Below, one piece after another: positions 1-52,898 of a stretch of 64,000 bases of DNA. Every line of letters begins with the position of its first letter. The first letter of the stretch is position 1. Position numbers and translations under genes: made by a program. The notes under the pieces were generated by a model, which ran no database searches, had not been told where the DNA came from, and saw only the letters and a list, made by a program, of their open reading frames with translations. Source of the stretch: a virus (Duplodnaviria > Caudoviricetes); IMG/VR virus record IMGVR_UViG_3300018083_000446, positions 974 to 64,973 of that record. One strand, written 5' to 3'.

Positions 1-1775
1 CCGGAGTCTATACGTATGGCGGTGAATACGCCTGGAGGCGCAACGGGCGAATCGTCGGTGGTGAGCCCCCACCATTTCTTGAGTGCTAGAACTTCACCCG
101 CAGTGGCCGTAATGTCAGTGCCAACTTCAGTGACTGCGTTCCACGTAGCCAATGAAGTGTAGACTGATCCACCCCACAACCAGCTGTAGTTGGCAGCTGC
201 GCTATACCATTTGTTGGCGTTCCACGATACACCTTTACCTGGTATGAGGCTGTTACCCCATACGTGGTGCGGGTTGTTGGCGGTCGCTATCTTGTCGCTG
301 ACGTTGTCGTGTATCTGGTGTTGGCCTACGCCGAATATGATATCACCACGCACGTCACTGTCGTCAGTGACCTGCCACACACGACCATAGCCTGAATCAG
401 CCCCATTACCAGAGCCGACTACGAGGTTCCTAGCTGTTTCACAATCGTACGCACTGGACAGATGGATTGTTGGACCACCGTCTTCAGTGCCACCGTTATA
501 GAAACAACTATCAAAGATGTCGATTGCGCGGCTTATTTCAGGCCATGCAGCCGTACCAGCGCAGTTGCCAATCTTATTCCAGTTGGCTACAGCCCTGTCG
601 CAGTGAATGTCCCACCACAGGCCACCACCACCGGTAGTCCCACGGCTGACGTTGTAGCGTACGATACCGTCAGTGCTAAGGACTACCTTATAGATGCCAC
701 CAGACTCACGCCATTCGTAGTACAGATGGCCGTTGTTGACCCACGTATTGTTCTCGAAGCGATATCCTGCAGCGTTGAGCATGGTAAGGCCGTTGACACC
801 ATGCTCGCGTATCAAACACTTTTCTACTACGCTACCTGTATTGGCGGCGTTGAATGTGGGCCAGCCGAAGCTGATACCTACACCATGCGTGAAGGCGATT
901 TGACAGTTACGAAGTTCAAACCCAGCACGATCATTATTGCCGATCGGGTTGCCAAACGGCCCTGACCCGGCATCCATGAACGTGATGCCCTCGAACTTCA
1001 CGTTGTCAGCGTTCGTGAACCACCAGTCGGTTTGTTCACACACGTGGACACGATCGAAGCGAGTCGCTGGGTTAGTACCGCCTAGACGTATGCGTTTGTC
1101 GGCTCCACCTTCCCAACAGTATTCATCCGCCGCTAGAGTGGTAGTACCAGCTGCTTTGGCCTTGAACCGTGTAGGTACGCCGTTCTTCCAGCCCGTAACG
1201 TTGTTGAAGTTCTGTGCGGCGTTGGAATCGACTTCGGTAAACCCAGACTCAGAGATATCAGGGGCTGTACGAGTCGACCGCCAATACGAACCTACAGACG
1301 TCCACGCAGCGTTGACGCCTGTGTCGTTGTAGTTCCTAGCACCTGAAATAATAACGTCACGATTCTGAGCGCGTATCGTTATGGCTTTGGAGTTGTTATT
1401 TAGTACTGCCCCGTTGAGGTAGTAGGTTCCAGGTGTAGGGTCGATAATGGAACCTGGAGGCGCCCCGTTGATGAGGTCCTGCAGGGCTGTAGCAGAGCCG
1501 TTAGTGGGGAATGTGAACCGTGGGAGGATCGAAGCTTGGCCTGCGACAGCGAACTTCGATCCTACGATCTTACCACGATAGCGATAGTCGTAGAAGGCTG
1601 TTGGAACGAACCCCGTTTCAGGCGTGTCGATGAAGTACGGGTACGGCATCGTCTCGATGATGGTCCACGTACCAGCGCCTTGTGGTGAACGTTCGAGTTC
1701 GTACATGGTGGCACCAGCCACCAGGTCGCCTTGCGCTTCGACGTACCCTAGACCTGATTTGAGGGTTAGCGCCAT
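1..1775 (-). CDS. Parallel beta-helix (pectin-lyase-like) virion protein, putative depolymerase/receptor-binding protein; 3' end beyond window
   Basis: Absent from the ORF track because it has no stop in the window. ATG at 1775, 2 nt after the TMP stop; I read the frame as open to base 1 (MALTLKSGLG...PGTYYLNGAVL...NVKFEGITF...GGGLWWDIHC...FTAIRIDSG). Asn/Gly-rich beta-helix-type rungs and a GLWxD motif. Confidence 0.75.
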   Translation of the reverse strand, partial: MALTLKSGLGYVEAQGDLVAGATMYELERSPQGAGTWTIIETMPYPYFIDTPETGFVPTAFYDYRYRGKIVGSKFAVAGQASILPRFTFPTNGSATALQDLINGAPPGSIIDPTPGTYYLNGAVLNNNSKAITIRAQNRDVIISGARNYNDTGVNAAWTSVGSYWRSTRTAPDISESGFTEVDSNAAQNFNNVTGWKNGVPTRFKAKAAGTTTLAADEYCWEGGADKRIRLGGTNPATRFDRVHVCEQTDWWFTNADNVKFEGITFMDAGSGPFGNPIGNNDRAGFELRNCQIAFTHGVGISFGWPTFNAANTGSVVEKCLIREHGVNGLTMLNAAGYRFENNTWVNNGHLYYEWRESGGIYKVVLSTDGIVRYNVSRGTTGGGGLWWDIHCDRAVANWNKIGNCAGTAAWPEISRAIDIFDSCFYNGGTEDGGPTIHLSSAYDCETARNLVVGSGNGADSGYGRVWQVTDDSDVRGDIIFGVGQHQIHDNVSDKIATANNPHHVWGNSLIPGKGVSWNANKWYSAAANYSWLWGGSVYTSLATWNAVTEVGTDITATAGEVLALKKWWGLTTDDSPVAPPGVFTAIRIDS

Positions 1776-10482: not shown

Positions 10483-10800
10483 CTAGCGCGGAGGGCCCGC
10501 AGCCGCTAGCGCAGGTGATGCTTCTGTGCTGGCGTAGAGTCGAAACTCCTCTCGGTTCAGGAAGTGGTCAACATCGTCCTTGTACACCCAACGTACCTTG
10601 TGGTCAGGGTCTGACCCGAAACGATAGCGCGCACCGGTCTTCATACCAGTGTATGAAATGGGAGCGGCTGCGTCGCCAACGTATTCGATCAAAACAGCCC
10701 CGTCCTGCTGTGACGGAGTGGAAGGGTTCATCGCTTGAGCGTAGACATCGAATGAAGGTAGCGACGGAGCTCCACCACCACCAGAACAACCACAGGGCAT
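10483..10800 (-). CDS. Probable independently translated small protein (MPCGCSGG...), in frame inside the GT fusion
   Basis: ATG at 10800 preceded by GGAGGAAAGA Shine-Dalgarno; domain LIEYVG...YTGMKTGARYRFG. Confidence 0.5.
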   Translation of the reverse strand: MPCGCSGGGGAPSLPSFDVYAQAMNPSTPSQQDGAVLIEYVGDAAAPISYTGMKTGARYRFGSDPDHKVRWVYKDDVDHFLNREEFRLYASTEASPALAAAGPPR

Positions 10801-13113: not shown

Positions 13114-13573
13114 TCACATACACCTGCACGTATCCTGGCAACGACCCCGCGACATTGGTCCAAGACCTTTGCAGGTCATTGGTCTTGTCCTCATCGAAGC
13201 GGAGTTTGCCACACACTAGTTCACCTTTTCCAAATGGAAAAGCTCGCGCAACTACGTAGTGCCCTTCGAGCGCGACGTAAGGTGCCGCGTCCAACGGACT
13301 GTGGATAGACGTGACCAGATCGAACTGGCCTATAATTTCACCAATGATTAACCGTGCATACAGCCTCGCATCTCGTTTTACGTCTGGATCGAATGTTTGG
13401 CCAATGGAGGGTTTACAACCGAACATGCGTGCGGCTCGCACCATGTATCCGTTGTGGCATGCTAGGTCGAGGTACGAGCGTGGGATACCCAGGCATGCAA
13501 ACATGGCATGCATGGCACGCTCACTAGCCTCGCGCACTTCAGTAGACGGGTCGATCACCGACTTCGTACTCAC
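13106..13573 (-). CDS. SAM-dependent methyltransferase-like protein (degenerate motif I)
   Basis: SYLDLACHNGYMV resembles LDLGCGxG; FDLVTS motif; lies inside the glycosylation cluster. Confidence 0.55.
   Translation of the reverse strand: MSTKSVIDPSTEVREASERAMHAMFACLGIPRSYLDLACHNGYMVRAARMFGCKPSIGQTFDPDVKRDARLYARLIIGEIIGQFDLVTSIHSPLDAAPYVALEGHYVVARAFPFGKGELVCGKLRFDEDKTNDLQRSWTNVAGSLPGYVQVYVNG
13223..13244. repeat. 22-bp palindromic motif copy 2 (ACCTTTTCCAAATGGAAAAGCT), intragenic
   Basis: Exact motif inside the methyltransferase-like CDS. Confidence 0.95.
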
Positions 13574-14210
13574 CTATGTGCTCCCAAGGCCCCACTAGAT
13601 TCAACGCTGCAGCGCGTAGCCCATTGTGCATGTTGCAACGATCAGAGTAGTCGCGTTCACAGACGTACGCATCCACCCCTTCAAGGAACGGACCGACCTT
13701 TTCGTAGAACCGCTTCGACGCCAGGAACGGACGCGTCCCGAATACGAACCCACTCCCGAACTCTAGGTGGAGCCACCACCCAGGTCCAACCGTGAACTTG
13801 GTGAAACACGGTAGGTTAGGGTGTATCGGTCCTAGACGTACGAAGTCGTATTCTTCTTCGCGTATCAACCAGATTGCTTTATCGAGATTGATTGAGCCTC
13901 GATCATACGAATCTTGGAGTTCCCAATCGTCAGTAGTGTACAGCCAAAGTTCGTTGTGCGCCACTCTAGCCAACGCTCGATTGAGGGATGCCCCAATGCC
14001 ACCGTGCGGCCCGGTTACGATTGAAACGTCCTCGCCGGGGAAATGCGTGATGTTAGGCGTCACAGGCGATCCATCGTCCGCTATGATGTATCGAATGGTC
14101 TCCGTGCGACATTTGAGGTTCTCCACCAACGCATCTAGGCAAGTCTGGGCGTAGGCGTGGCGTGGAGCGCTGGGTTCGGGGTTGTACGTAGTCATGACCA
14201 CCGCTACCAT
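13539..14210 (-). CDS. Glycosyltransferase family 2 (GT-A)
   Basis: VVMTTYN...IIADDGSP...GIGASLNRAL...TDDW...EHIG. Confidence 0.85.
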   Translation of the reverse strand: MVAVVMTTYNPEPSAPRHAYAQTCLDALVENLKCRTETIRYIIADDGSPVTPNITHFPGEDVSIVTGPHGGIGASLNRALARVAHNELWLYTTDDWELQDSYDRGSINLDKAIWLIREEEYDFVRLGPIHPNLPCFTKFTVGPGWWLHLEFGSGFVFGTRPFLASKRFYEKVGPFLEGVDAYVCERDYSDRCNMHNGLRAAALNLVGPWEHIGEYEVGDRPVY

Positions 14211-14905
14211 GATCGTTCGGCTCCTATGTGCACGAACAGATCACCGTAGGGTTTGACTTCTTGTACGGGCCAGATCACGCCTTGACGCGCTTCAGAAATG
14301 TGCGCCACGGCGAACTCGGTCTGGCCTGGTTCGAGCCCCTCAGGCCAAGGACCCACGCTTCTCTCCCAACCCACTGTCTCGATCCTGGGGTGGCCAGAAA
14401 AAACGTGAGGTTCAGCTGATGATGGATCGAGTCGTAACCATAGACGACCGTGGCTGGAGGCGAATTCACCGCGGAGTGGCTGAGTGAAACCCAAGTATCC
14501 CAACCGCATGCAGCCAGCGCCGAGTTCGTTAAGCGCTCCGATGAAGAGGTCAAGGTCGAGCTCACGTGTCAACTCCCAATCATCTTCCAGAACCAGAACA
14601 TGGCTGGCAAAGTTGTGTACTAGCTGTGTCGCCAAGTTGTAGTTCGCCCCATAGCCTGAACGACGTGAATTCGATGTGGTCACTAGCTCGAGCGGGATGG
14701 GCGACGTGTCGGTGATCTCGTGGAGCGTTTGAATGTACTCGTCCGTATCGCCGTCACTGGCAATGTGCACGGACAGCGCTCCGCTCGTGCGCACGTGTGC
14801 CAACGCAGACGTGAGCGTCGTTTTGGCATACTCGAGGCGCCCGTACGTCAACAACATGATGCACACGTTACTCATTGGGGTCCTCTTGACGAGGCACCCA
14901 TTCAC
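14204..14905 (-). CDS. Glycosyltransferase family 2 (GT-A)
   Basis: MLLTYGR...IASDG...GYGANYN...LVLEDDW...FVHIG; resembles the adjacent GT. Confidence 0.85.
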   Translation of the reverse strand: MNGCLVKRTPMSNVCIMLLTYGRLEYAKTTLTSALAHVRTSGALSVHIASDGDTDEYIQTLHEITDTSPIPLELVTTSNSRRSGYGANYNLATQLVHNFASHVLVLEDDWELTRELDLDLFIGALNELGAGCMRLGYLGFTQPLRGEFASSHGRLWLRLDPSSAEPHVFSGHPRIETVGWERSVGPWPEGLEPGQTEFAVAHISEARQGVIWPVQEVKPYGDLFVHIGAERSW

Positions 14906-15560
14906 GTGTTACGAGATCACGTGTCTCCAGGATAACCCCTTGCCACGATGCCTTCGAGGCCGTATCGGCTTCAGCGTGACGACGGTAGTTGTAGAGTGGA
15001 GCGCCGTTGGCAACTGGCCAGTGACGACCTGCACGAGGGTAATTCCCGATGATGATCGAAAGGAGTGCGGCATCCGGAGCACCCGACGCTGATTGAACTG
15101 GAAAACCACCCGTTCGTCGCCACAACGACTTAGTAACCATTGCCGCATTACAGGCGAGCTCCTGGGTCTCACCGGTGTCCGAATAACGAACACCCACGTA
15201 GTAGTAACCGTACGGATCGCCTTGACGCGCTTGGTATTCCTTGACGCACTCTTCGATACAAGTAGGCTCGAGCCAATCATCCGACCCCAGCATAAAAACG
15301 AGTTCGCTCGGCGCAACCGCGACACCGATGTTGAATGCATGTGCTACCCCCAGGTACCAAGGGCTCTTCCACACAGAGTACGCCAGGTCACTGGGGACCA
15401 TGTGTAGGCTGACATCAGCCATGTCGTCTACGATCTGGAGATGGATACCCCCATGCGACAGATGGTTCCACGTTTGGTCGCTCACTGAACGGATGCACTC
15501 GTCCAACCACCTACGATTAGACGGGTTAGGGCCGACAGGGATCGTAACGGTCACCATCAT
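14868..15560 (-). CDS. Glycosyltransferase family 2 (GT-A)
   Basis: VTIPVGP..WLDECIRSVSDQT..IVDD..GVAHAFNIG..LGSDDWL..YNYRRH. Confidence 0.85.
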   Translation of the reverse strand: MMVTVTIPVGPNPSNRRWLDECIRSVSDQTWNHLSHGGIHLQIVDDMADVSLHMVPSDLAYSVWKSPWYLGVAHAFNIGVAVAPSELVFMLGSDDWLEPTCIEECVKEYQARQGDPYGYYYVGVRYSDTGETQELACNAAMVTKSLWRRTGGFPVQSASGAPDAALLSIIIGNYPRAGRHWPVANGAPLYNYRRHAEADTASKASWQGVILETRDLVTREWVPRQEDPNE

Positions 15561-16363
15561 ACCGTAATTGGTTCTCGATCGTAGGCTTCGACCAACCGCG
15601 TGAGGTCGCGCAGCAGACTAACCGTCGGTTTGAGGCCTCGATACACTATAGGTTCGTCCACTGGAACGATGTTGATATCCTTGGCGAACGCATCCTTGAG
15701 GTCCAGTAGCAGTTGGTACTTCGTCGTGACGGGCGCTGCCACGTGGTACAGGCTAGGGCTCATGTGGAACATCTTGATGAGCATATCTGCCACATCGTAG
15801 ACCGTACTACCCGCCCAATACGCCTGCGTGTAACCTTCGATGGTGGCACCGGCTGGTTGATCCAGGAACCACCGTAGCAACCCGTGCTGCAACCCGATGA
15901 ACGACGTACGAACGATAACGGTATCAGGGACTTCACCCATCACTTTGCTACGCCCGTAGAGGTTGATCGGGTCTGTACGATCGAGTATGCTTCGCAACCC
16001 AGGTGCGTACCCGCTGAACACGCAGTCAGTAGATACCAGGATCACTTTAGAAGCGTGGAACACGTCCTTCACAACCCACGGCCCGAGCGCGTTGGCACGC
16101 ACCATATCGGAAGGCATGTGCAACCCTGTCATGTGATGCGGCGTAAGGCCTGCGCAATTCACGACGACGTGAGGGTGGATAGCACCTTCTACCTTACGCA
16201 TGGCGTCCCAGTCGGAGATATCATGCTCCGAACCTGTTACCCACGTCTGGTACTTGGCTAGGCGCGCCGCTGTCGCAACAGCACGCCCGAGCATACCACG
16301 CCCGCCTAACACCAACACTCGACCCTTGAAACCTTCGGGTTCTTTGAGTTCGACTTCAGACAC
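15557..16363 (-). CDS. RmlD-like NDP-4-keto-6-deoxyhexose reductase (SDR)
   Basis: GGRGMLG Rossmann motif, VVVNCAG, STDCVFSG, YGRSK, RTSFIG. Confidence 0.88.
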   Translation of the reverse strand: MSEVELKEPEGFKGRVLVLGGRGMLGRAVATAARLAKYQTWVTGSEHDISDWDAMRKVEGAIHPHVVVNCAGLTPHHMTGLHMPSDMVRANALGPWVVKDVFHASKVILVSTDCVFSGYAPGLRSILDRTDPINLYGRSKVMGEVPDTVIVRTSFIGLQHGLLRWFLDQPAGATIEGYTQAYWAGSTVYDVADMLIKMFHMSPSLYHVAAPVTTKYQLLLDLKDAFAKDINIVPVDEPIVYRGLKPTVSLLRDLTRLVEAYDREPITV

Positions 16364-17288
16364 CTTCGCTCTCCCTTATCATCTGGACTAGCTCTGTGCG
16401 GGAGAGCGGTTCGGCTAGATTGGAACTCATCGTAGGTAGTTCGCGTGTGTAGTCCTCGCTACCTGGCGGCATGATGGCGTAGAAGTTGTCGTACGCCTTG
16501 GTGCGATAGAGTTCGTAGTGGGTGATGAGGTCTTCGTGCTGCTTTTCACCAGGACGCTTCCCAACTACTTGGATTCGCCCAGCCTCGAACTCAGACCCAC
16601 ACACTTCCAACACAGCGTGCGCTATGTCGATCATACGTGCAGCGCGTGGGACAGGGACCGTGATCGAACCTCTAGGGGCGGCGAATGCCTTGACGATGGT
16701 ATCCACAGCATCGTTGATGCTCATCCAGAACCTGGTCATGTCAGGGTCTGTTACACGAATGCAACCGTCTTCGCGGAATTGTTCACGCATGACAGGCACG
16801 ACAGACCCAGTCGAACCAATGACGTTCCCGTAACGACACGCGTTGTACCCGTACTCAGATACCAGGCGTTCCATGAGCGCCTTGGTGATCCCATACGTGT
16901 TGACTGGCTGTGCAGCTTTGTCGGTGGATATGGCTACCAAGCTTGCCATGTGTACGGTACGTGCGGCGTGCAACACGGTGCCTGATCCGACGACGTTCAC
17001 CCTAGCGAACTCGTCTACGTTGAACTCACCTTCGGGGATGAACTTCGCAGCTGCAGCGTGAATCACTGCATCGTGGCCTACCATCAGGTTCTGGACACGA
17101 CCCAAGTCTGTGATATCCCCAAGCACGAATCGTGCATCGGGGAACTGTTGTGCACAACGGTATTGCTTTTCCTCGTCACGTGAGAGGATAGTGAACTTGG
17201 CGGGCCAACCGTCGCGCTGTGCACGACGTAGAATCCCGCGACCCAAGTAACCAGTCCCCCCGGTGATCAAGATATTGCCTTTCAGCAT
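16356..17288 (-). CDS. UDP-GlcNAc 4,6-dehydratase (PseB/FnlA/CapE family)
   Basis: ITGGTGYLG, SRDEEKQ, HAAAAK, STDKA, YGITK, RYGNVIGSTGSV, TDPDMTRF, RPGEKQHE; start overlaps the upstream stop (TGATG). Confidence 0.92.
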   Translation of the reverse strand: MLKGNILITGGTGYLGRGILRRAQRDGWPAKFTILSRDEEKQYRCAQQFPDARFVLGDITDLGRVQNLMVGHDAVIHAAAAKFIPEGEFNVDEFARVNVVGSGTVLHAARTVHMASLVAISTDKAAQPVNTYGITKALMERLVSEYGYNACRYGNVIGSTGSVVPVMREQFREDGCIRVTDPDMTRFWMSINDAVDTIVKAFAAPRGSITVPVPRAARMIDIAHAVLEVCGSEFEAGRIQVVGKRPGEKQHEDLITHYELYRTKAYDNFYAIMPPGSEDYTRELPTMSSNLAEPLSRTELVQMIRESEGV

Positions 17289-19711
17289 CAAATCTCCCAG
17301 GGTTTGACCGCCTCTGCGGGCGGTTCGCAATTAGAGGGTTCGTACACCCAATCGTTATCACCGTAGTCTCGTGCTACTCCTACAGGCCAGACCACCTCCC
17401 TATCTAACGTATTGTCTTGTTCGCACGCTACGTAGTTCTCGAGCAACGGTGGTGCAATGTAGATCGCACCTAAGTTCTGAGCTCGTGGGCCTAGCGTGCC
17501 TCGCAGCGCTGTGGGTGGTGCAGCGAATCGTATCTCGGCTCTAGCTCCGACACGACCTACCAATCCACCTTGGCGGAACAACAGACCAGCTACGCTTTGT
17601 GCATGCGTGCCTACGCGTGCTACCAATACCGTACGACGAATCGCTTGGTATGTGTTGGTGGCGCGTGGGCCGATTGTTATCGTAGCTGCAAACCCTCGCT
17701 GTGGGACCATTACAAAGTTGGGGCGAGCGCCCGCGCGCCCGACTGCAGGAGCGGATCGTACGCTAAGGATAACGAAGTCCACCCTAGCACCAGCGCGCCC
17801 CAACACACTGCCACTAGTAGTGCGCGTGGCTGCCGTTTGCGATTGAGTACCTACACTAGCCGTTCCAACTACAGTGATCCTCTTGACACCAGCGTTCTGC
17901 GCTCGAGAACCAGTGTGGCCAGCAGCACTCCTCGACCCGCCAATAGCACCGACCAGCGTACCACGCGTGCCTGCGCTACCAACAGCAGCGCCGCTCGAGT
18001 TCTTCGCACCAACGTCCTGTGCGCGGGACCCAACACTACCTTGCGCCGTACCAGTTAGGTTAGTGACGGTTTGTGCAGAGTTCTGAGCGTGGGTTCCTAC
18101 TCGACCGCTAACGCTGGCGGTGGTTGAATGCGCCCCAGCCGTGGTGGCTGTGGGGCCACTACGTGCAACGTCAGTCGCAGTGATTGATTTGACGCCTGCG
18201 TTCTGTGCACGTGAACCTGCATAGCCAGCTACGAACTTGGCTCCGCCTTGTGCACCCACCGTGGCAGCATGTGTGCCTACACGACCCACCACTGCAGACG
18301 TACGTTGTGCTACGTCTACATGTGTAGCTCGACTGCCAACGCTGGCGACTTGGGCGGTGGTGATGCGCTTGACGCCTGCATTGGTGGCGCGTGGACCTAC
18401 ACTACCTGCGACAGTCGCAGGAGCTGCTGCTGGTATAACAAACTGTGCCCACGAAACGAGTATGCGACGCTCGATGACTTCCGCGCCAACGTTGGTAGCA
18501 CGTGGGCCAACGTGGCCCAAGGATGGTGGGCGTGTAGCAGCTGCTGGTATCTCTAGTTGTACCCACGATACCTGAGCACGCGCTGTTATACCTTGGCTAC
18601 CAACGGTTTGAGCGTGCGCTCCCACACGCCCCACCACCGTCGATGTGTTGGTACGTGCGACGGCCGTAGTGACCTTAGCGCCTACTGAAGCTACGTGGGG
18701 GTTGGCGATCTTCTTGACGCCAACCGCTACAGCCCTAAAGCCTGTCTTGCCAGCGATCGCACCGCTAACACCAGTGATCTGTGAACCAGCGGTTGTCGCG
18801 TGGGTGCCAACTTTAGCTGTGGCCGCTACACTAGTGCTATGTACGCCTACGTCAGTCGCACGTGGGCCGACTCGAGCGGCGCCTGTAGCAGTCGCACTAC
18901 GTACGCCTACATTCTGGGCACGTGGGCCAGCTGTTCCAACCAGTGGTATACCAGCTGCGGCGGTTGGTACTTGTAGTGATACGTAGGATACTACGGCACG
19001 CGGTTGTGGAATAAACCCTACGTTGGTAGCACGTGGACCAAGTTTGCCAACTATCGCACCCACGCTCTGTTGCATGAACGTGAGGTTAGCGCTGAACTCA
19101 ACCCACGGGTTTAGGTCAGTAGTTAGCCCATCAGAATGTGCAAAGTCTGACGCGGCTGAATCACCAAAGCGAAGCGTCGTTGTGAACGAGGTAGACGTAC
19201 CAGCTTTGCGAAAGCCAATCTCAATAACGAGGTAGTCGCCAGCGCTGAACGTACGTGACGTTAGCGTGAGGGTTGTGGCTTCAGCGGCGTCCTGGAAACG
19301 CCGTGTCAGAGCAGAAGTGGTAAACTCAGGTGGGGCAGCAGCTGTGTTATCGCTAGCACTAACAGCTAGCAGGTCATTGATGTGTGTGCCCGCGCTGGAG
19401 ACCTGGCGTATGTTGATCGCTACGGTCGAGTTGAGGTTAGCGTTCGACTCTAGACCACGAATGACGCCGGTGACCGTACCACTGATGGTCTGCGCCGCCA
19501 TCGGTCCAACGATGTACTGGCGCATGACCGTCGTCGCCGGGTTGGCGGCTGACGGGCTTGCACTAGCGTGGTTCGCAAGGGTTGTGTTTGCCTTAGTTGT
19601 CGAACCAATCTCGCGGTCGAAGCCCGTTGTAGCTGTGGCTGTCCAACCAGTTCCTACGGCTGGCGAAATCGCCGGCGTGGTGCCGTCTGGTAGGTAGATC
19701 CTCGTAGCCAC
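17288..19711 (-). CDS. Ala/Gly/Thr/Val-rich repetitive virion fibre/scaffold protein
   Basis: 807 aa; N-terminal beta-rich domain then many ~22-aa repeats (G-x-VG-x-RA-x-N-x-G) and three R-x-x-VS(W/Y)-x-x-x-x-(I/V)P motifs. Confidence 0.7.
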   Translation of the reverse strand: MATRIYLPDGTTPAISPAVGTGWTATATTGFDREIGSTTKANTTLANHASASPSAANPATTVMRQYIVGPMAAQTISGTVTGVIRGLESNANLNSTVAINIRQVSSAGTHINDLLAVSASDNTAAAPPEFTTSALTRRFQDAAEATTLTLTSRTFSAGDYLVIEIGFRKAGTSTSFTTTLRFGDSAASDFAHSDGLTTDLNPWVEFSANLTFMQQSVGAIVGKLGPRATNVGFIPQPRAVVSYVSLQVPTAAAGIPLVGTAGPRAQNVGVRSATATGAARVGPRATDVGVHSTSVAATAKVGTHATTAGSQITGVSGAIAGKTGFRAVAVGVKKIANPHVASVGAKVTTAVARTNTSTVVGRVGAHAQTVGSQGITARAQVSWVQLEIPAAATRPPSLGHVGPRATNVGAEVIERRILVSWAQFVIPAAAPATVAGSVGPRATNAGVKRITTAQVASVGSRATHVDVAQRTSAVVGRVGTHAATVGAQGGAKFVAGYAGSRAQNAGVKSITATDVARSGPTATTAGAHSTTASVSGRVGTHAQNSAQTVTNLTGTAQGSVGSRAQDVGAKNSSGAAVGSAGTRGTLVGAIGGSRSAAGHTGSRAQNAGVKRITVVGTASVGTQSQTAATRTTSGSVLGRAGARVDFVILSVRSAPAVGRAGARPNFVMVPQRGFAATITIGPRATNTYQAIRRTVLVARVGTHAQSVAGLLFRQGGLVGRVGARAEIRFAAPPTALRGTLGPRAQNLGAIYIAPPLLENYVACEQDNTLDREVVWPVGVARDYGDNDWVYEPSNCEPPAEAVKPWEI

Positions 19712-19715
19712 GAGG

Positions 19716-21701
19716 TTAGCTCACCTGGTTAGCAGTGAAGCGCAAGCGCAACGCTGACCAATTAGTGATAGTGCCGCTGACTGTTTGGACCGCATCTTGC
19801 CAAGTGTATGGCACGTCAGTGTGCGTCCACGTTTGGACTACGCTCGCACCTTCCATGAGGTCCACTACCAAGTCGATCTGGTGGCCTGCCAAGTCCTTTT
19901 TGTAGCGATAGTAGAGGGTGCGTGTGCCAGCCACTGGTGCGCTTAGAACACCTAATGCTACTGTCGCAGCATCGTTCACAGGGCTAGCACTAGACTTAAT
20001 GTAGTCGGCATCACTCGCTGGTAGCTCGTCTATCGAAGCGTACAGGTTGACGTTGCTATCTAGTTCGTTCGTCCAGCCACCGTCTGTTACATCAGCTACA
20101 GGTCGTACGGCTTGACCACCAGTGGTAACACCAACGCACTGAGCCCTAGGGCCTACATGGCCAGCCACGGCTGTGCTGTCGCCATCACCCAACACCATCG
20201 CTGTACCGGTGTCGTGACGTACACTAAGTAGTGTGGTACCAGCGTCATACACCCAACCTTCCTGGGTGAGGTCACTACGCTGTGGTAATCGTACACCGTT
20301 GGACGTGACACGTGTAGGCGTGAAGGCTACACGCACACGCTCTATGCCAGGCTCGAACGTGGTATAGCTAACGCCTAGTGTGTTGTACTTGATAGCTTGC
20401 ACTACTGCAGGTAGCCCACCCAACCCGCGCACTGAAACTATGTGCGTCTCGCTGGGTGGTGCCCATTCAGGTACGGCTGCGAAGCCGTCCATGTAGTGCT
20501 TGATCAGATCGCCGTAGCTATCGGACCACCAGTAGTCGTCGGTCGCTGCCAACGCTGCTTTGATACGACCGCCAGTGTTATCTAGTCCGTACGTGACGAA
20601 GTTGAACGAACGATAAGCGTCCTCCTTGAAGGACGACGTACTGGTCTGGGCGTACCACAACGCGTTGATTGACGCCCACCGTGCTGTGTGGCTAGTCAGC
20701 CCTGGATCGCCGCAGCACACATCTTGTTCGTCGATTCGCTGCGCGGAGAAACTAGTACCGGCACTGAAGTTCGTGACCACCCACGTTAGCAACGCTGGCA
20801 CATGCGTAGTGTAGTTCGGGTCTACATCAGCTGGGTTATTACGATTCAGGATATACCGACACGTCTCCATCGGGACGAGTTGATTGTCGTTACCAGCTTC
20901 GTCTTGAGAACGATGGATGTCCTCGAAGTACGCCTGCCACTTGTTCGTGGTCATTGGCCCGTTGGCACCAAGCACCCAATTCCAAGCCGTGTTACGTGCC
21001 GTAGTGTAGGCGCTGGTATTGCCAATACCCAGACGTATGAGCTCGTCGAAAAGCTCCACACCAGCCACAGCGTTGCAACCGTATTCCTGGTTGACAGCTC
21101 CTGTCGGGCCATACACACGGAACGGCCACGGTGACTGTGTTGTGCTACCAGTACGTACGTGGGATTGCAATGCATCAGCGCAATCAATCGCAGCGTCACG
21201 ATAGGTAGTGTCACCGGTCAGCTGCCAGAACTTGAGGTACGCGTGGCCTAGTTCACCTATCTTGTCTGGCTCGAGCCCGTCGGTATCATCGTCGTCAGCA
21301 TCGCCATCACCAGTGTACGTGAACGCACCAAACTCAGACGTGGCGAACGGAACGTTAGGCCAATCCCATGAACCAGACGTCGTGCCATTGGCGAGCATGT
21401 AGTCCAAGCAAGCCTTGACGTGTGATATGAGACTGCTATCCCCGGAGAACGCAAGCCACGGTATCAACGAGTCCACGAAGCACGCGTAGGTCATGGCCGG
21501 GTTGTGCGACCCGAACTCCGTACCACCACTGTCGAAACAACAGTACCTCAAGTACGGCTTGGTACCGCCTACAGTAGGTACGGTCTTGAAGTAGTTCCAA
21601 GCGTAGCCGATCAACTGCACGTAGGCAGTGTTCTGCGGGGTCAACCACGACAGTAGTTTACTGCTACCGTCGAGGACTTCCGTGTGTCCGTTGATCGCCA
21701 T
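19716..21701 (-). CDS. Virion-associated protein: putative (alpha/alpha)6 glycoside-hydrolase-like domain + C-terminal beta-sandwich
   Basis: EPDKIGELGHAYLKFWQLTGDTTYRDAAIDCADAL six-hairpin-type helices; C-terminal ~130 aa paralogous to the next gene. Confidence 0.6.
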   Translation of the reverse strand: MAINGHTEVLDGSSKLLSWLTPQNTAYVQLIGYAWNYFKTVPTVGGTKPYLRYCCFDSGGTEFGSHNPAMTYACFVDSLIPWLAFSGDSSLISHVKACLDYMLANGTTSGSWDWPNVPFATSEFGAFTYTGDGDADDDDTDGLEPDKIGELGHAYLKFWQLTGDTTYRDAAIDCADALQSHVRTGSTTQSPWPFRVYGPTGAVNQEYGCNAVAGVELFDELIRLGIGNTSAYTTARNTAWNWVLGANGPMTTNKWQAYFEDIHRSQDEAGNDNQLVPMETCRYILNRNNPADVDPNYTTHVPALLTWVVTNFSAGTSFSAQRIDEQDVCCGDPGLTSHTARWASINALWYAQTSTSSFKEDAYRSFNFVTYGLDNTGGRIKAALAATDDYWWSDSYGDLIKHYMDGFAAVPEWAPPSETHIVSVRGLGGLPAVVQAIKYNTLGVSYTTFEPGIERVRVAFTPTRVTSNGVRLPQRSDLTQEGWVYDAGTTLLSVRHDTGTAMVLGDGDSTAVAGHVGPRAQCVGVTTGGQAVRPVADVTDGGWTNELDSNVNLYASIDELPASDADYIKSSASPVNDAATVALGVLSAPVAGTRTLYYRYKKDLAGHQIDLVVDLMEGASVVQTWTHTDVPYTWQDAVQTVSGTITNWSALRLRFTANQVS

Positions 21702-22837
21702 TAGACCTGGTTAGCTGTGAAGCGTACGCGCAAGTTCGAATAGTCGCTGATGGCGTTGGTTATTGTTTGTTCAGCCAGTGTATGAGTCGTGGAAATATCG
21801 GTATGGGTCCACGTCTGCACGACGCTAGCGCCTTCCATCAAATCCACAACCAAGTCCACTTGCGCGCCGCTGATATCCTTCCAATAGCGATAGCGTAGCG
21901 TGCGCGTACCGCTAATCGGGGCTGACAACGTACCCATCGCCAGAGTGACTGGTGATGAGTTAGGGTCTTGTTCGGAGCGAATGTAGTCAGCATCGTCCGC
22001 TATAACTTCATCCACCACTGCAAACAAGTTCGTGGTAGCGCCGGTCTGCGTAGTCCACGCACCAACGCTAATGTCCGATGTTGGCTGTACAACTTGCCCT
22101 TCAGCTTTTGTACCTGCACACTGAGCTCGAGCACCTACGCTACCTAGCGCCGCGCCTGAAAGGTTTGTGCCACTGGTGCCTTCGAACGCAGCGATAACCA
22201 TCGCTGTATCGGCCGATATCGTGCCCCATACGTGGCCCCGACTTTGTGCCGTCGTCACCGACTGGTTTACTATAGAACCAGCCATGTTGACGGCGCCATT
22301 CGTCTCGCGGCTAGCAGCGTTGAATTCAGCCCACGTACCCTCAGTGCCCGTTTGGTTCAGGTTGATTGTGACGGTGCCACCCAAGTCGATGGAAATGACC
22401 GCCATGTACAACGCGTTGACTTTGCCAGTGTTGTCAACGTTGAGCGAATCGTGCAGAGTTTGAGCAGTCGATGCGTTGTTGTTCGACCCGATCAACGAAC
22501 TGGCTGTCAACGCATCTTGCACTTCAGCCAGGAACAACGTGACCCCACCGCTCGTACTAGCCCAAGTTACGTTGACTGAACCAGCCGACAAGTTCTCCTT
22601 ATAGAACATGCCGGCATTGGCACCAGCACCACCATGGCGTCGTGCAATGACCGTGTATGCACCGTGCACGTTGTCCGAGATGGTTAGGCCAGTTTCCTGG
22701 CCGCCAGACCCACCAAAGTTCGTTAGCCCAGCAACTGCCAAACGCCCGGCTGTGTAAGTGATAAAGCCGTTCAGCGTACCACCGGTACCGGTGTCTACAG
22801 CGTGCTTAACCGTTTGCGTGACAGTAGGGGCAGCCAT
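21701..22837 (-). CDS. Virion accessory protein with the paralogous C-terminal beta-sandwich
   Basis: Thr/Gly/Ala-rich; C-terminus DADYI.S...GTRTL.YRY.KD..G.Q.DLVVDLMEGASVVQTWTHTD...LR.RFTANQV shared with 19716-21701. Confidence 0.65.
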   Translation of the reverse strand: MAAPTVTQTVKHAVDTGTGGTLNGFITYTAGRLAVAGLTNFGGSGGQETGLTISDNVHGAYTVIARRHGGAGANAGMFYKENLSAGSVNVTWASTSGGVTLFLAEVQDALTASSLIGSNNNASTAQTLHDSLNVDNTGKVNALYMAVISIDLGGTVTINLNQTGTEGTWAEFNAASRETNGAVNMAGSIVNQSVTTAQSRGHVWGTISADTAMVIAAFEGTSGTNLSGAALGSVGARAQCAGTKAEGQVVQPTSDISVGAWTTQTGATTNLFAVVDEVIADDADYIRSEQDPNSSPVTLAMGTLSAPISGTRTLRYRYWKDISGAQVDLVVDLMEGASVVQTWTHTDISTTHTLAEQTITNAISDYSNLRVRFTANQV

Positions 22838-23239
22838 TTACTCGAGTTCCCCAGAAATGTCTGATGCCTGTATGGTAACACCCAATCGAACCGTCACCCC
22901 TTCGGTTTCGACCCACACACGTGCCTGCATCGCTTGCATCTCCGCGAACGTAGCAGAATCATGTTTTACAGACGGCATAGAGCCGCGTGGGCCTAGTTCG
23001 CCAAAGACGATATTTTTAGTGGTGAACCATTCTTGGAACGGGCCTGCACCTATACGTATATCGACTCCCCATTGAACGATACGCCCTTGGCCCGCAACTT
23101 GGCTCCATGAGTTCGGGTTGCTGGTGGTGAATACCACGTTGAAGCCGCGCAAGCCATCTGGAATGGCTTGCGCGGTGAACAAACGCCTCGCCCCGCTTGA
23201 AACAGGCGTCGGAGCGACCGTACGTGTGACGATCGCCAT
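22838..23239 (-). CDS. Hypothetical virion protein
   Basis: 133 aa beta-rich ORF tightly packed in the late operon. Confidence 0.65.
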   Translation of the reverse strand: MAIVTRTVAPTPVSSGARRLFTAQAIPDGLRGFNVVFTTSNPNSWSQVAGQGRIVQWGVDIRIGAGPFQEWFTTKNIVFGELGPRGSMPSVKHDSATFAEMQAMQARVWVETEGVTVRLGVTIQASDISGELE

Positions 23240-23243
23240 ATGT

Positions 23244-23966
23244 CTACGCGACGGCGCCTAGATCAACCGACCCCGACGACAGAGCGTAGGTGCCCTGACC
23301 TGCGAATGTCTCAGGCACACACTTCTGCGAATAGAACACGAACGGCTGCGTACCGGTCAGGTCTATCGCAGTACCGCCGCTGGTGGTGGCAACGCGGAAC
23401 GAGTCCGTAGCCAGACCAGTAGCGATCACGAAATAGATCGTACCTACGCTGAGGCCCGTAGGCAACGTACCCCAGAACACCACACGGTTGTCAGCGACTA
23501 GACCGTGGGCCTTGCTGAAGATATCGTTGTTGGTGATGTCGGTCGAAGTCTCAGCAGACGAGTACAGCAGAGCACCACCACCTGCGGGCATCATACCACT
23601 GAAGTTGCCCGTTGTGATGGCGTCCCAGAACCCGACCCACGCTACGGTTGTAGACGCTGGCACGTCCCACGTTGGAAGCGTAGCCGCCAACGCTTTTGCA
23701 CCGCCCGAACTAGCTGCCCACGTGAGGGCCTTGCGTGCGTAGGCAGGTGAACCACCAGTGACTTCGTTGGTGCCAGTTGTAGAATACGCCGTGTGAAGCG
23801 AACCGTGTGTTGCTTCAGTGGCGAACCCATCTAGTGCGGCGTGCTTGCCATTGTTGGCCATGAAGAACGCCTCGTATGGCCGCAGCAACCGCGCCAAATC
23901 GCGCGCTATAGGCGCACGATGCACGACACCACACGGACACAACCGAGGCGCAGGCAAATGAATCAT
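23244..23966 (-). CDS. Head decoration/fibre-base-like protein
   Basis: Start 23966 with GGAGGAGG RBS; SLHTA..GTNEVTGGSPAYARK..WDAITTGNF pattern plus an inserted HGL..DNRVVF..LPTGL..YFVI domain. Confidence 0.65.
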   Translation of the reverse strand: MIHLPAPRLCPCGVVHRAPIARDLARLLRPYEAFFMANNGKHAALDGFATEATHGSLHTAYSTTGTNEVTGGSPAYARKALTWAASSGGAKALAATLPTWDVPASTTVAWVGFWDAITTGNFSGMMPAGGGALLYSSAETSTDITNNDIFSKAHGLVADNRVVFWGTLPTGLSVGTIYFVIATGLATDSFRVATTSGGTAIDLTGTQPFVFYSQKCVPETFAGQGTYALSSGSVDLGAVA

Positions 23967-24015: not shown

Positions 24016-25488
24016 TTACCCCTTGTAATCCGCGAAGAACGAGGGTGCAGTCGATCGCGAGGTGACACCACCGTTGATGAAGTACGGATCGTTCGGGAAC
24101 GGATCACGCGTGTGCAGCATCGGGCTGTACTGAACGTTGAGGAGCCGACCAAACAGGTGAGGCACCGGAACGATCAATCGCGGCTCGATGTACGCCTGCC
24201 ACTGCACGCATGTGTTGACTGGAGGCTTGAGGTGCCAGAAGTACTGACCACCATCAGTCCAGTAGAACGTGCCCATGCGGCCATCGTTGACGGCGTCCAT
24301 TGTGCCGTTGCGATAGTCGAGGAATTCCCAGTAGATGCCCGCCATACCACCGAGGAAGGTGTTGCAGATGAAATAGATATCGGACGCGAATGACCCGGCG
24401 GTCACCTTGTTCGATGTCGTCTGCGAATCTTCGTCGATAGCATCGTCGAACACGACTGGGAACTGAGCGCCATCAACGAGCAGATACTTGCCCTGGCGCA
24501 TGGCGTCGCGCATCTGGATCTGGTCGTTGGCGTTCATGAGCAGCGTCTGCGTGCCGTCTGTAGCACGCATCTGACAGCCGAACGTCATGTACGAACACGG
24601 CCAGAACGCCGTGAGTTCGTAGAACAGGTTCTCGCGCATGGCAAGCGACCACGACGCCGGCATGAGCCCCATCTTCTCGGCGTTCGAGCGCAAGATGCGG
24701 ATCATGTAGACGATGGTACGAACGATGTCGGCGCCAGACGAAGTGTCACCAACACGCTTGTAGCCGTAGTCCAACACCAGCGAGTTCAGCGAAGGGCACG
24801 ACTGGCCTGTGATGGCGTCCTTCTTGTTCGTGCCAATCAGCAAGTCCAGCCCAGGGAATTCACGATAGCCACCGCCGCTAGTGTTGTTGGCGGGGTTACC
24901 CGAGTACACCTGGCGAAGCAGCTTGTTCTGGAACGACACACCCAGCTCGACGAAACGCATGAGCGCCTCACGTGCCAAGTTCTGCGCACCACCCGGGATG
25001 CTGGGCGTGATGATGCCGTTGGAGTTGACGCCAGGCGCCAGCAACGGATCATTGACGATACGCAGGTCCATGAACTCAGAGCGGTTGATTTGCTGGCGTG
25101 CCAGTGTGGTCAGCTCGAGTTCACGAGTCTTGAATGCGTAGCGTCCGAACTGCGCCGTCTGGTAGCAGTTCTTCATTGGACCAGCTGTAGGCGGCTCGTC
25201 GCACAACCCCACCGGGTTCGCACCTGAACCTGGCAAAAAGCCCGTCAGGTACGGGAACAGCGGGTCGGTCGAGTTGGTAGGGCGAGCTGGAATAGCGCCC
25301 GCCAGACCCACAGGTTGGACGCGAGTCGAGATGATGTCCCGCTCGAGGCCTGGGTATGACCACAACCCGTTGACCCCATGCAGGTATGGCGTGGTGTTCC
25401 CATACACGCCGGACGGTGCAGTGTGCCGCTGGCCGGCGACAACCTGCGAGCTCGAAAGCTCTCGAGCCAGATCCTGAAGCAGACCCAT
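24016..25488 (-). CDS. Major capsid protein (putative)
   Basis: 490 aa directly downstream of the protease/scaffold, followed by a stable hairpin; ...EFPGLDLLI... motif. Confidence 0.8.
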   Translation of the reverse strand: MGLLQDLARELSSSQVVAGQRHTAPSGVYGNTTPYLHGVNGLWSYPGLERDIISTRVQPVGLAGAIPARPTNSTDPLFPYLTGFLPGSGANPVGLCDEPPTAGPMKNCYQTAQFGRYAFKTRELELTTLARQQINRSEFMDLRIVNDPLLAPGVNSNGIITPSIPGGAQNLAREALMRFVELGVSFQNKLLRQVYSGNPANNTSGGGYREFPGLDLLIGTNKKDAITGQSCPSLNSLVLDYGYKRVGDTSSGADIVRTIVYMIRILRSNAEKMGLMPASWSLAMRENLFYELTAFWPCSYMTFGCQMRATDGTQTLLMNANDQIQMRDAMRQGKYLLVDGAQFPVVFDDAIDEDSQTTSNKVTAGSFASDIYFICNTFLGGMAGIYWEFLDYRNGTMDAVNDGRMGTFYWTDGGQYFWHLKPPVNTCVQWQAYIEPRLIVPVPHLFGRLLNVQYSPMLHTRDPFPNDPYFINGGVTSRSTAPSFFADYKG

Positions 25489-25497
25489 GGTCCCCCC

Positions 25498-27021
25498 TTA
25501 TCCTCTCGTGCCAATGAGGGGACCAAGGATCGTACCCTCGAAGAAGTCCTTAGCAATGCCGGCCTCTGCACCTGTGCTGGCCACAACATTGTCGTCGGAC
25601 TTGGACGCCGAAACGGGCGCCCCAACCTTCGGAGTCATAGCCTCAGCCACCACAGCGTCACCGCTCTTGATGTCCTTGGTTCGTTCGTCGATCGACTTGA
25701 CCTGCGCGGCCAACGTGCTAACGAGCTCTTGGATGCTCATGAGCGTCTTGGTCGTTTCGATCCTGAAGTTGTTCTCCTGGACCTGCTCAGGTGTGGGCGG
25801 TGGCTCGACCTCAATACCGAGGTCAGCTGCCTTACTCTCCAGACCCTGGGTCTTCAGAGCTTCGGCCAGACCCTCAGTAGCGGTTTCCCACTGCTTGATC
25901 TGGTCTTCGGGGATGCCCATATCCACGAAGTACTTCCGCTTGTCGGGGGTGAAACCCATCTCGTTCGCCTTTCCTGCGTTCAAAAGATTGAAGCTAGTCG
26001 TCCAGACGGCAGCGTTCGTCACCGGTAGAACCGATATCTCGTACGAGCGGTACCATTCAATCAGGTTCTCTCTCTGCAGCCCGAAGAATCCATGCGATAC
26101 GCCAGCGTCCTCCCGTGCAGCTTTCTCAGCGAGCGCTTCTTTTCCAGCGTCGATGAGGCCGCTGGCGTGGACGAAGCCATCTTCTGTCAGGTCGAGCCAG
26201 TCCACCTGGCCGAACTTGGAACCCATGGTGTGCCACAGCCACAACTCGGGATACTGGCTATGTTCACTAGCCCAATCCACGAATTCCTTGTGCGCGGCCT
26301 TGGTGAAAATTTCTCCCTCCCTGTCCATGAAGTTGTTAGACCACACGGTGTAAAACCGCAGGCGACCGTCTTTCTGTCGTACCAGCCCGAACGCCGCCGA
26401 CCCACCGTCGTGTTCGTCCGTGCCTGACACAGGGGTGTGGGCGGAGCCCGAGTTGTTGAACCTTGTCACCAGTGACCGCAAACCTTCCAACAACCCAGGC
26501 TTCCCCGTCGGGCTGTTTGGTAGGGGTGGTTCGATAACAGGCAACGGATCGGGCTCCGCAAAATCTCGTTCCGCTACGACCGCGACAGTACCACTCGAGG
26601 AATCAGTCGTTGCTTTGGCACGCCATAGACTAGACACACCCTCAGGATCAACCGGCCCCTCCACCAAAGCGCATGAACCTTCACCGACGTACCAGTGACA
26701 AGTGGCGCAACTTCCAGCGTTGCTAGCTCTGATCGTACGGTAGCCGGCAACGTCCTTAGTAAGTTGTACCAACCCTGGAGGCGGGTCGTCATAGTCTCCG
26801 TTGTCATACTCCTTCGCCTCGAACAACAGTTCAGCATCTTCGAGAGTCATAGTGGAAGGGTCCGCGTCTTTAGACGCCGCCACCCCATTCGCCATCTTGA
26901 AGCATTTCTCTTCTGGATGCCCGTCCGCCGCACAGCCGTTGAAGATGTGGAGCCACTGGCGTTGGCGGGTGGGCGGCAGCTTCTTGACGTGGGCAGGAGC
27001 ATTAGCCGCGGTGTAAGGCAT
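25498..27021 (-). CDS. Prohead protease/scaffold with N-terminal ChaB-like and HiPIP-like domains
   Basis: NNFMDREGEIF..LWLWH..GVSHGF..YEISVLP..AA protease core; N-terminal LPPTRQRQWLHIFN..EEKCFKMAN; CATC..CALVEGPVDPEGVSSLW. Confidence 0.75.
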   Translation of the reverse strand: MPYTAANAPAHVKKLPPTRQRQWLHIFNGCAADGHPEEKCFKMANGVAASKDADPSTMTLEDAELLFEAKEYDNGDYDDPPPGLVQLTKDVAGYRTIRASNAGSCATCHWYVGEGSCALVEGPVDPEGVSSLWRAKATTDSSSGTVAVVAERDFAEPDPLPVIEPPLPNSPTGKPGLLEGLRSLVTRFNNSGSAHTPVSGTDEHDGGSAAFGLVRQKDGRLRFYTVWSNNFMDREGEIFTKAAHKEFVDWASEHSQYPELWLWHTMGSKFGQVDWLDLTEDGFVHASGLIDAGKEALAEKAAREDAGVSHGFFGLQRENLIEWYRSYEISVLPVTNAAVWTTSFNLLNAGKANEMGFTPDKRKYFVDMGIPEDQIKQWETATEGLAEALKTQGLESKAADLGIEVEPPPTPEQVQENNFRIETTKTLMSIQELVSTLAAQVKSIDERTKDIKSGDAVVAEAMTPKVGAPVSASKSDDNVVASTGAEAGIAKDFFEGTILGPLIGTRG

Positions 27022-52688: not shown

Positions 52689-52898
52689 GTGCCACACATC
52701 GTAACGTTTCCTAAGTGCCAGACGTGCGGGTCTGGCGAAGCACGCACGTGCCCTGTGTGTGCAGAATGGACTTGCTTTGAATGTTTGATTGTAGTAGACG
52801 AGCATGATGATTCAGACTGTGTCCACATCCTCCCCCCACCACTCCCCCCAGGCGGGTGGTCCGATAGCGGGCCCGGAGTGTCACAGAGGGACCTGTAG
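52689..52898 (+). CDS. Small Cys-rich zinc-finger protein
   Basis: CQTC, CPVC, CFEC. Confidence 0.5.
   Translation: MPHIVTFPKCQTCGSGEARTCPVCAEWTCFECLIVVDEHDDSDCVHILPPPLPPGGWSDSGPGVSQRDL

Follow-up and report, generated by a model that had tools for sequence, protein, structure and literature searches.

The window considered here comprises 64,000 of the 64,973 bases of IMG/VR virus record IMGVR_UViG_3300018083_000446 (Caudoviricetes; estimated completeness 65%). On its minus strand three consecutive genes encode proteins of 378, 661 and 807 amino acids (aa), none of which has a Pfam match of any kind. With a probability of about two in three, the 807-aa protein is a rope whose strands plug the strand-less jelly rolls of the other two. 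In the docking so predicted, the 807-aa protein would be the rope-like scaffold of a virion fibre, and the 378-aa and 661-aa proteins, its cargo, would each end in a jelly roll of the carbohydrate-binding module (CBM) type encoded without its last beta-strand. Three segments of the scaffold with the form RxxVS(W/Y)xx(L/F)x(V/I)P would be that missing strand, each inserting into one domain, completing its sheet and fixing the cargo to the rope. The cargo would consist of a beta-sandwich adhesin-like module (378 aa) and a probable glycan-active enzyme (661 aa).

The two cargo proteins resemble each other at their C-termini only. BLASTP finds 90 identities in 168 positions there (54%, E=6e-54), the N-termini are unrelated, and both chains terminate ...LR(L/V)RFTANQV(S), all of which agrees with what a preliminary description of this DNA, made from the letters alone, had noticed. 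In the 661-aa protein an N-terminal portion of ~500 aa is followed by one copy of a repeat unit (the RAQ unit, considered below) and then by the strand-less jelly roll. The 378-aa protein has an N-terminal beta-sandwich (aa 1-220), a disordered linker with one RAQ unit (aa 223-245) and again the strand-less jelly roll; in its AlphaFold2 model the predicted local distance difference test score (pLDDT) is 95-98 at aa 250-378 and <50 at aa 223-245. A Foldseek search of the PDB with the whole model gave nothing at E<=0.001. Its N-terminal ~100 residues resemble small beta-sandwiches, the receptor-binding protein head of a lactococcal phage among them (Z 7-8), and the modelled likeness to that head is to be taken as a lead only. 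A lead likewise, the first ~500 aa of the 661-aa protein may be a candidate (alpha/alpha)6-type glycan-active enzyme; they adjoin unnamed clusters and one GH127/GH47/pectic-lyase-type cluster (Atlas features, 0.96-0.97).

The shared C-terminal domain has no Pfam or PHROG family, and its profile, like the gp80-like protein of the window dealt with below, has no PDB sequence match at E<=1. A pattern search with the two window copies alone gave 56 pattern matches and no relative, and a homologue search seeded with the relative P0148 gave 4 proteins. The domain belongs to a large family: a profile built from the two window copies and searched against 1.84 billion cluster representatives found 3367 of them (clusters at 50% identity) at E<=0.001, 1561 of which reach E<=1e-10. 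Among the best 150 representatives, 117 end no more than 5 residues past the domain, 4 run on for 6-20 residues and 29 for >20. Where the domain is not C-terminal, as in the 29 long representatives and in viral loci, what comes next is mostly a short linker rich in Gly and then a strand of the form xRRxxVSWAELEVPD; a few such domains (L049, L050, L042) lack the cis strand. The preliminary description had expected a cis strand of this kind in phage homologues and had suggested a profile search for it. The expectation holds for most non-C-terminal domains, which carry RxxVSWAELEVP, but these are a minority of the best 150 representatives, most of which end at the domain. Some domain-only proteins of 157-168 aa (P0003, P0017, P0068, P0073, P0094) have an Arg-rich start, ...GRRRRRAFIPSAP or ...PRRRPFFF, which precedes the domain by ~20 residues.

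The position of the strand in the cis form comes from P0148, a homologue of 174 aa that consists of the domain and its cis strand. AlphaFold2 with a 28-row alignment modelled it with a mean pLDDT of 91.9 and a predicted template modelling score of 0.83. The model has nine strands, the last of which is AQVSWGEFEIP (E141-151, block pLDDT 98); the C-terminal domain in the 378-aa model (pLDDT 95-98) has one strand fewer (B to H). P0148 is modelled as a CBM-type jelly roll, with Foldseek matches to CBM16 and CBM61 at E 4e-4, and structural comparison (VIA) gives Z 10.1 to CBM16 2zew_A (root-mean-square deviation (rmsd) 3.4, 126 aligned), Z 10.3 to IFT25 2yc2_A and 72 chains with Z>=8. For the C-terminal domain of the 378-aa protein the same comparison gives Z 8.0-8.2 to CBM4-2, CBM16 and BT0459. 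By its models, then, the docking domain belongs to the galactose-binding-domain-like/CBM jelly-roll fold class and superposes on solved CBMs. The fold is shared with CBM16, CBM4, CBM6, CBM15 and CBM61 (for P0148, Z 9.4-10.4, rmsd 2.7-3.6 Å, 113-137 aligned) at identities of 3-12%, a likeness by fold only, and unlike all of those solved modules the window copies are without the last strand. Two of 39 family members have a weak CBM_4_9 (PF02018) match, which at E 0.0044 is below any curated cut-off.

The point at which the window copies stop can be read from the same superpositions. P0148 reaches 2..146 of 146 in 2zew_A where the 378-aa protein's domain covers 1..131; in 2yc2_A the ranges are 1..134 and 1..119, in 8xmz_B 10..146 and 10..131, in 4bj0_A 2..167 and 2..150, in 3k75_B 2..153 and 2..136, and in 1gny_A 91..243 and 91..225. 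The shortfall is 14-20 residues in 14/14 solved targets common to both lists, and because the 378-aa protein's domain stops that early where P0148 reaches the end of the solved domains, the window domain appears to be one terminal strand short. As modelled, what the window domains lack is precisely the strand that terminates the canonical fold, a place taken in the cis relatives by the VSW strand. In the textbook jelly roll the strand order is BIDG/CHEF, by which the added strand would lie between B and D.

Some relatives seem to stop earlier. P0179-P0182 (272-273 aa, 51-56% identity to the 378-aa protein) all end ~45 residues into the jelly roll, after ...DDADY(I/M)QSxA(G/A)P, and in four loci (L103, L110, L114, L117) a partial domain match lies in the ORF (open reading frame) just upstream of a fibre gene with the scaffold's type of N-terminal domain, near nucleotide (nt) 8925-9004. 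These shortened domains may represent a second, earlier split point, or a divergent remainder may have been missed by the domain model.

The 807-aa scaffold has no PHROG match and no PDB sequence match at E<=1. Its parts are an N-terminal domain, Gly/Ala/Val/Arg-rich repeats of ~20 residues that take up ~550 aa, the three docking strands and a short tail that contains Cys. In the six-frame ORFs of the window the pattern RxxVS[WY]xx[LF]x[VI]P occurs three times, each time in the 807-aa protein and where the preliminary description had placed three copies of an isolated strand (Table 1); it occurs in no other six-frame window ORF and in no reversed window ORF. Across all loci, 1.12 million ORF residues hold it 23 times forward and 0 times reversed. 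All three strands are kept in P0155, a scaffold homologue 81-83% identical and from another sample.

For free strands 80 IMG/VR viral loci with the domain were compared, using a domain model and a 17-residue strand model made from 30 cis examples. At >=8 bits the strand model has 219 matches in the real ORFs of these loci and 0 in the reversed ORFs. Strand-less C-terminal domains and free strands go together: free strands (1-15 copies) are present in another ORF in 37/55 loci with a strand-less C-terminal domain and in 1/20 loci with cis-strand domains only, 5 unclassified loci being left out of the comparison. Fisher tests give p=9e-7 for all loci, p=3e-5 (29/45 vs 1/17) after dereplication at 90% domain identity and p=0.003 (15/28 vs 1/16) at 70%, values that overstate independence since the loci are mutually related. 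The distance from the domain gene to the first free strand, which lies downstream and on the same DNA strand in 37/37 positive loci, is 18-2970 nt. In 33 viral loci taken as a negative control, where only the N-terminal domain of the scaffold is represented by a homologue, neither a strand nor a complete jelly-roll domain is found.

Free strands are of two kinds: either a repeat fibre has one of them, at or close to its N-terminus, or they form a tandem array, of period ~16 residues, adjoining a domain-only protein of 140-165 aa. L033, for example, pairs a candidate bead of 145 aa with a rope of 9 strands. In L017 the domain protein ends ...LRLQFEAT and TAA, and the next gene opens with GTG and at once reads AWHVSWAEFEVP; judged from sequence, this is a natural split of the fused form exactly at the boundary of domain and strand. 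Among proteins with three tandem domains the strand model, at >=4 bits, finds 3 strands in 3, 2 in 5, 1 in 3 and 0 in 1; by eye nine show three consecutive strand-like segments, a count that is not leaned on. P0005, P0046, P0056 and P0069 (506-559 aa) have an N-terminal jelly roll with a cis strand and a C-terminal jelly roll without one, and such a two-domain protein could plug into the strand of another protein or chain head to tail. In L005/L006 a 146-aa domain-only gene is followed by a 1051-aa ORF with 10 tandem strands, a middle segment and 5 more strands. The middle segment, viewed by eye without a family scan, is possibly a beta-helix or depolymerase-like, and up to 15 beads would then sit on one enzyme-bearing chain.

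That these three strands bind these two domains, and how strand and domain are paired, is what we infer from the comparative data. Modelling of a complex of domain and peptide had been proposed in the preliminary description, and a prediction of aa 508-661 of the 661-aa protein with aa 365-435 of the scaffold (three runs, three controls) gave interface scores (ipSAE) of 0.39, 0.42 and 0.59 (median 0.42), the best of the controls being 0.00; the partner's pLDDT was 46 and the run agreement at least 0%. In calibration the mark applied was reached by 58/80 solved complexes and 2/110 mismatched pairs, and at <=0.60 by only 7 of those 80 solved complexes and by both mismatches. The modelling thus separates the pair from its controls, but with a score in a low-reliability band that, without a good prior, is more often wrong than right. 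Because the comparative data supply a strong prior, it is taken as mild, model-based support.

This and the relatedness of the loci are not the only points that weigh against docking in the window. Of the scaffold's strands, strand 2 alone reaches the threshold of the family strand model (11.3 bits); strands 1 and 3 keep the R-x-x-V-S-aromatic-x-x-hydrophobic-x-V/I-P frame and miss the usual acidic residues. Three strands face two domain proteins, and the stoichiometry is unaccounted for. Eighteen of the 55 orphan-domain loci have no free strand at >=8 bits; four of these have <1.6 kb downstream, and divergent strands, such as two of the three in the window, would escape the strand model. The place of the strand within the sheet is derived from secondary structure and alignment ranges only, and AlphaFold2 gives the strand-less domain a pLDDT of 95-98, so a stable eight-strand form is possible.

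The last point is the starting place for the alternative that survives best, which we consider unlikely: the domain would be a self-sufficient eight-strand CBM shared by recombination, and the VSW segments part of the 807-aa protein's own fibre fold (rungs or oligomerisation strands) that do not touch the 378-aa and 661-aa proteins. Besides the confident model of the strand-less domain, this would suit the 117/150 homologues that end without a strand, the fold class, which is that of sugar-binding modules, and the long tandem arrays, in which strands possibly form a structure of their own. It leaves unexplained why free strands are almost confined to loci with strand-less domains (37/55 against 1/20, and 0/33 of the loci with the N-terminal domain only) and why it is exactly the terminal strand of the solved homologous folds that the window domain is without. 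The cis strand is moreover modelled within the domain and not in a fibre, and the scaffold fragment appears not to be self-folding, since on its side of the predicted complex the pLDDT is 46.

Quite improbable in our estimate is completion of the strand-less domains by some other virion protein (capsid, collar or tail tube) or by reciprocal exchange within a homo-oligomer, the scaffold's strands serving other partners. The divergence of strands 1 and 3 and the three strands for two domains would fit it, and P0005 and P0046, in each of which one domain has its strand in cis and the C-terminal one is an orphan, show that partners can lie outside a domain's own chain. However, the strand pattern is absent from every other ORF of the window in all six frames, the free strand follows the domain gene at 18-2970 nt in all 37 positive loci, as it does in the window, and the complex prediction with the scaffold fragment passed, if weakly, with controls at 0.00. 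Hardly any credence can be given to bridging of the junction by stop-codon read-through or recoding, which would make the split forms cis proteins in reality: the strand ORF does follow in the same frame after a single stop in L005/L006, L017/L018, L022, L024 and L029, but same-frame adjacency in ~1/3 is the chance level and the remaining strand-bearing loci are not so arranged, the downstream gene of L017 has its own GTG directly before the strand, and the window's genes are in different frames (a TAATG overlap, then a GTG after a 4-nt gap) with strands that sit 238-427 residues into the next protein.

Supply of a missing strand in trans, the docking preferred here, has precedents of several kinds. 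In chaperone-usher pili an immunoglobulin (Ig)-like subunit lacks its last strand and is completed by an extension of the next subunit; the process needs a periplasmic chaperone and an usher, and polymerises head to tail. The window's cargo domain is similarly encoded, as modelled, without its last beta-strand, which another protein would supply, but its fold is a jelly roll and a single scaffold would have several donor strands. Pfam scans of 42 window ORFs found no chaperone or usher family. The preliminary description had proposed that the last strand comes in trans as in pilus donor-strand exchange. Its first half is supported by the cis fold, the missing strand, the co-occurrence, the L017 split and, weakly, the complex score; the pilus mechanism is not the closest one, because chaperone and usher are not present and the fold is not Ig-like. 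The cellulosome is similar in that its scaffold, itself non-catalytic, has repeated docking sites for enzyme and binding modules, which attach through a small terminal domain. There the binding, which involves calcium, is between the surfaces of two folded domains, cohesin and dockerin, whereas in the window a peptide strand would complete a fold, and the Pfam scan found no cohesin or dockerin family.

By analogy the closest mechanism is that of a static rope completing an incomplete sandwich, as in the GP4, Bas63 and A1002 fibres. In rope-and-bead fibres, as the main texts describe them, an extended rope with repeated docking segments threads small beta-sandwich proteins, completing their sandwiches or augmenting their sheets; those known are fibre I of podophage GP4 (gp80 dimers on a separately encoded rope, PDB 8JOU), the collar-whisker of Bas63/Sf14, VP1 gp11, and the nozzle-rope gp39 of A1002 with gp40/gp41 (PMC12609058; PMC13730344). 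The A1002 nozzle-rope protein is described as having 11 docking sites, at which each gp40/gp41 (gp80-like) fibre dimer forms an augmented beta-sheet with the rope (PMC13730344), and completion of the Bas63 type is described as related to GP4 fibre 1, which has its rope as a separate protein (PMC12609058). The bead-chain neck fibre of Anabaena phage A-1(L), whose trimers are joined head to tail, is in its main text a different mechanism (PMC10966104). The window shares with rope-and-bead fibres a rope with several docking segments next to the genes of the beads, its three strands being in the gene directly downstream of the two domain genes.

The differences lie in the bead. The window domain is of an unrelated sequence family and has the fold of a CBM-type jelly roll; large cargo proteins carry it at their C-termini, where the gp80-type bead is a free protein of ~140 aa; its family widely exists in a fused cis form; and dimeric beads are not indicated. 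PF23140 has no match at E<=0.01 in the 378-aa and 661-aa proteins or in the 39 family members, the window's own PF23140 protein compared with the domain profile has an hhalign probability of 0.2, and GP4 gp77-gp83 have no match to the domain model or the strand model. A literature search of main texts, which took in neither supplements nor the GP4 structure paper, found no description of the pair of domain and strand. Completion of a sandwich in trans by a rope is, for the gp80 family taken as the analogue, already established; new here are the unrelated domain, the different fold class, the large cargo, the coexistence of fused and split forms, and how widespread the system is.

The scaffold's repeats have a distribution of their own. 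The strict unit G-x-[VATL]-G-x-RAQ-x-x-G occurs five times in the 807-aa protein and once each in the 378-aa (aa 232-242) and 661-aa (aa 514-524) proteins, and is absent from the rest of the window, from reversed ORFs and from 1.06 million residues of the other loci, so the repeat that the preliminary description had seen as common to all three proteins is indeed theirs alone in this comparison. A looser unit of ~20 residues is present in 15-29 copies in aa 215-760 of the scaffold. That the RAQ unit is a stand-in in cis for the missing strand was considered and rejected: it has pLDDT <50 in the 378-aa model and is absent from P0179-P0182. Being disordered in the model and, by sequence, an insertion before the docking domain peculiar to this lineage, it does not replace the strand. 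Disulfides linking the one Cys present in each RAQ unit to the pair of Cys in the scaffold tail were also considered, and dropped since P0178, a 96% identical homologue, has no Cys there.

The window resembles GP4 in having a gp80-like gene, three genes upstream of the scaffold gene, and GP4 has a Gly-rich repeat protein, gp79, beside gp80, from which we infer that gp79 is the GP4 rope. Because the window encodes a gp80-like protein and GP4's gp79 is a Gly-rich repeat protein, the idea arises, by analogy, that the window's gp80-like bead might dock on the RAQ repeats of the 807-aa protein. The rope would then have two orthogonal docking codes, 15-29 VGxRAxxVG units holding gp80-like beads and three VSW strands holding jelly-roll cargo, in a mixed, enzyme-bearing, chain-like fibre (a virion 'cellulosome') whose plug-and-socket system is widely reused, fused or split at will. 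This larger picture is doubtful.

The N-terminal domain of the scaffold has 24 homologues, in which unrelated repeats follow the domain, and is a widespread module that heads many different phage repeat proteins. The notion that it is itself a divergent jelly roll, the third of its kind and the partner of strand 1, was rejected (hhalign probability 0.2); its homologues are mostly without a strand after the domain, and the absence of strands from the 33 control loci also contradicts the idea.

The genes concerned stand in the structural module of the phage (Table 1). Those for the 133-aa, 378-aa, 661-aa and 807-aa proteins form a string that abuts or overlaps, the junctions being TAAATG, TAATG and then a GTG 4 nt past the stop of the 661-aa gene. 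Because they directly follow the capsid gene and the gene for the relative of GP4 gp80, their position suggests a fibre at the neck or otherwise near the head. Searched by tblastn against 50,697 deposited phage records, neither the 661-aa protein nor the putative capsid protein gave a match. From this result for the capsid protein, and since neither it, the 507-aa protein nor the protein in the portal position has a Pfam or PHROG match, the phage looks like a member of a little-sampled lineage.

Table 1. Features of the window discussed in the text (coordinates are those of the window; aa positions are those of the protein named).
Feature	Position in protein	Window coordinates	Strand	Remark
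Large terminase		28921-30642	minus	
Putative portal (477-aa ORF where a portal gene is expected)		27451-28884	minus	no Pfam/PHROG match
507-aa protein preceding putative capsid gene		25498-27021	minus	no Pfam/PHROG match
Putative major capsid protein (490-aa ORF, by position)		24016-25488	minus	no Pfam/PHROG match
205-aa relative of GP4 fibre I protein gp80		23244-23861	minus	PF23140 E=2.1e-07, phrog_240 1e-11; start codon chosen
133-aa protein in the coupled gene string		22838-23239	minus	no role assigned
378-aa cargo protein		21701-22837	minus	
C-terminal jelly-roll docking domain of 378-aa protein	aa 248-378	21704-22096	minus	
661-aa cargo protein		19716-21701	minus	
C-terminal jelly-roll docking domain of 661-aa protein	aa 530-661	19719-20114	minus	ends at strand H
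807-aa scaffold ('rope') protein		17288-19711	minus	
N-terminal domain of scaffold	aa 1-212	19076-19711	minus	ends NPWVEFSANLTF
Scaffold strand 1, RAVVSYVSLQVP	aa 238-249	18965-19000	minus	divergent; <8 bits with strand model
Scaffold strand 2, RAQVSWVQLEIP	aa 378-389	18545-18580	minus	nearest family consensus; 11.3 bits
Scaffold strand 3, RILVSWAQFVIP	aa 416-427	18431-18466	minus	divergent; partial strand-model match
Polysacc_synt_2 epimerase/dehydratase		16356-17330	minus	
RmlD-like reductase		15557-16363	minus	
Glycosyltransferase family 2 (GT2) gene		14868-15560	minus	
Second GT2 gene		13539-14210	minus	
GT4+GT2+GT2 fusion, 876 aa		10483-13113	minus	
233-aa ORF		within 10483-17330	minus	in sugar gene run
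155-aa ORF		within 10483-17330	minus	in sugar gene run
1386-aa tape-measure-type protein			minus	beyond sugar genes

Directly after the scaffold gene, and still within the structural module, there are seven sugar-nucleotide and glycosyltransferase genes (10483-17330, minus strand), which could serve glycosylation of virion proteins or a change of the host surface. Between these and the tape-measure gene a 500-aa protein (7058-8560, minus strand) has a sub-threshold match to beta-propellers of the BNR/YCF48 type (E 2.1e-05, 24.4 bits against a cut-off of 27), and on this similarity may be another glycan-directed virion protein. Elsewhere in the window a uracil-DNA-glycosylase-superfamily domain (aa 33-170) and a family A DNA polymerase (aa 433-802) are parts of one 821-aa protein (52804-55269, plus strand).

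Should the docking prove real, a phage domain both very common and unannotated is a socket, and a short peptide of the VSWAELEVP type its plug. This would explain how adhesins and depolymerase-like enzymes are mounted on fibres in many uncultured phages, and annotators could pair 'hypothetical' neighbours into assemblies. Since fused and split forms coexist in nature, fibre composition could be predicted from sequence by a simple and testable rule, and the domain with its small peptide tag is a candidate protein-assembly tool. The rope-and-bead principle, solved only for gp80-like beads in a few phages, would extend to a second fold and to large cargo.

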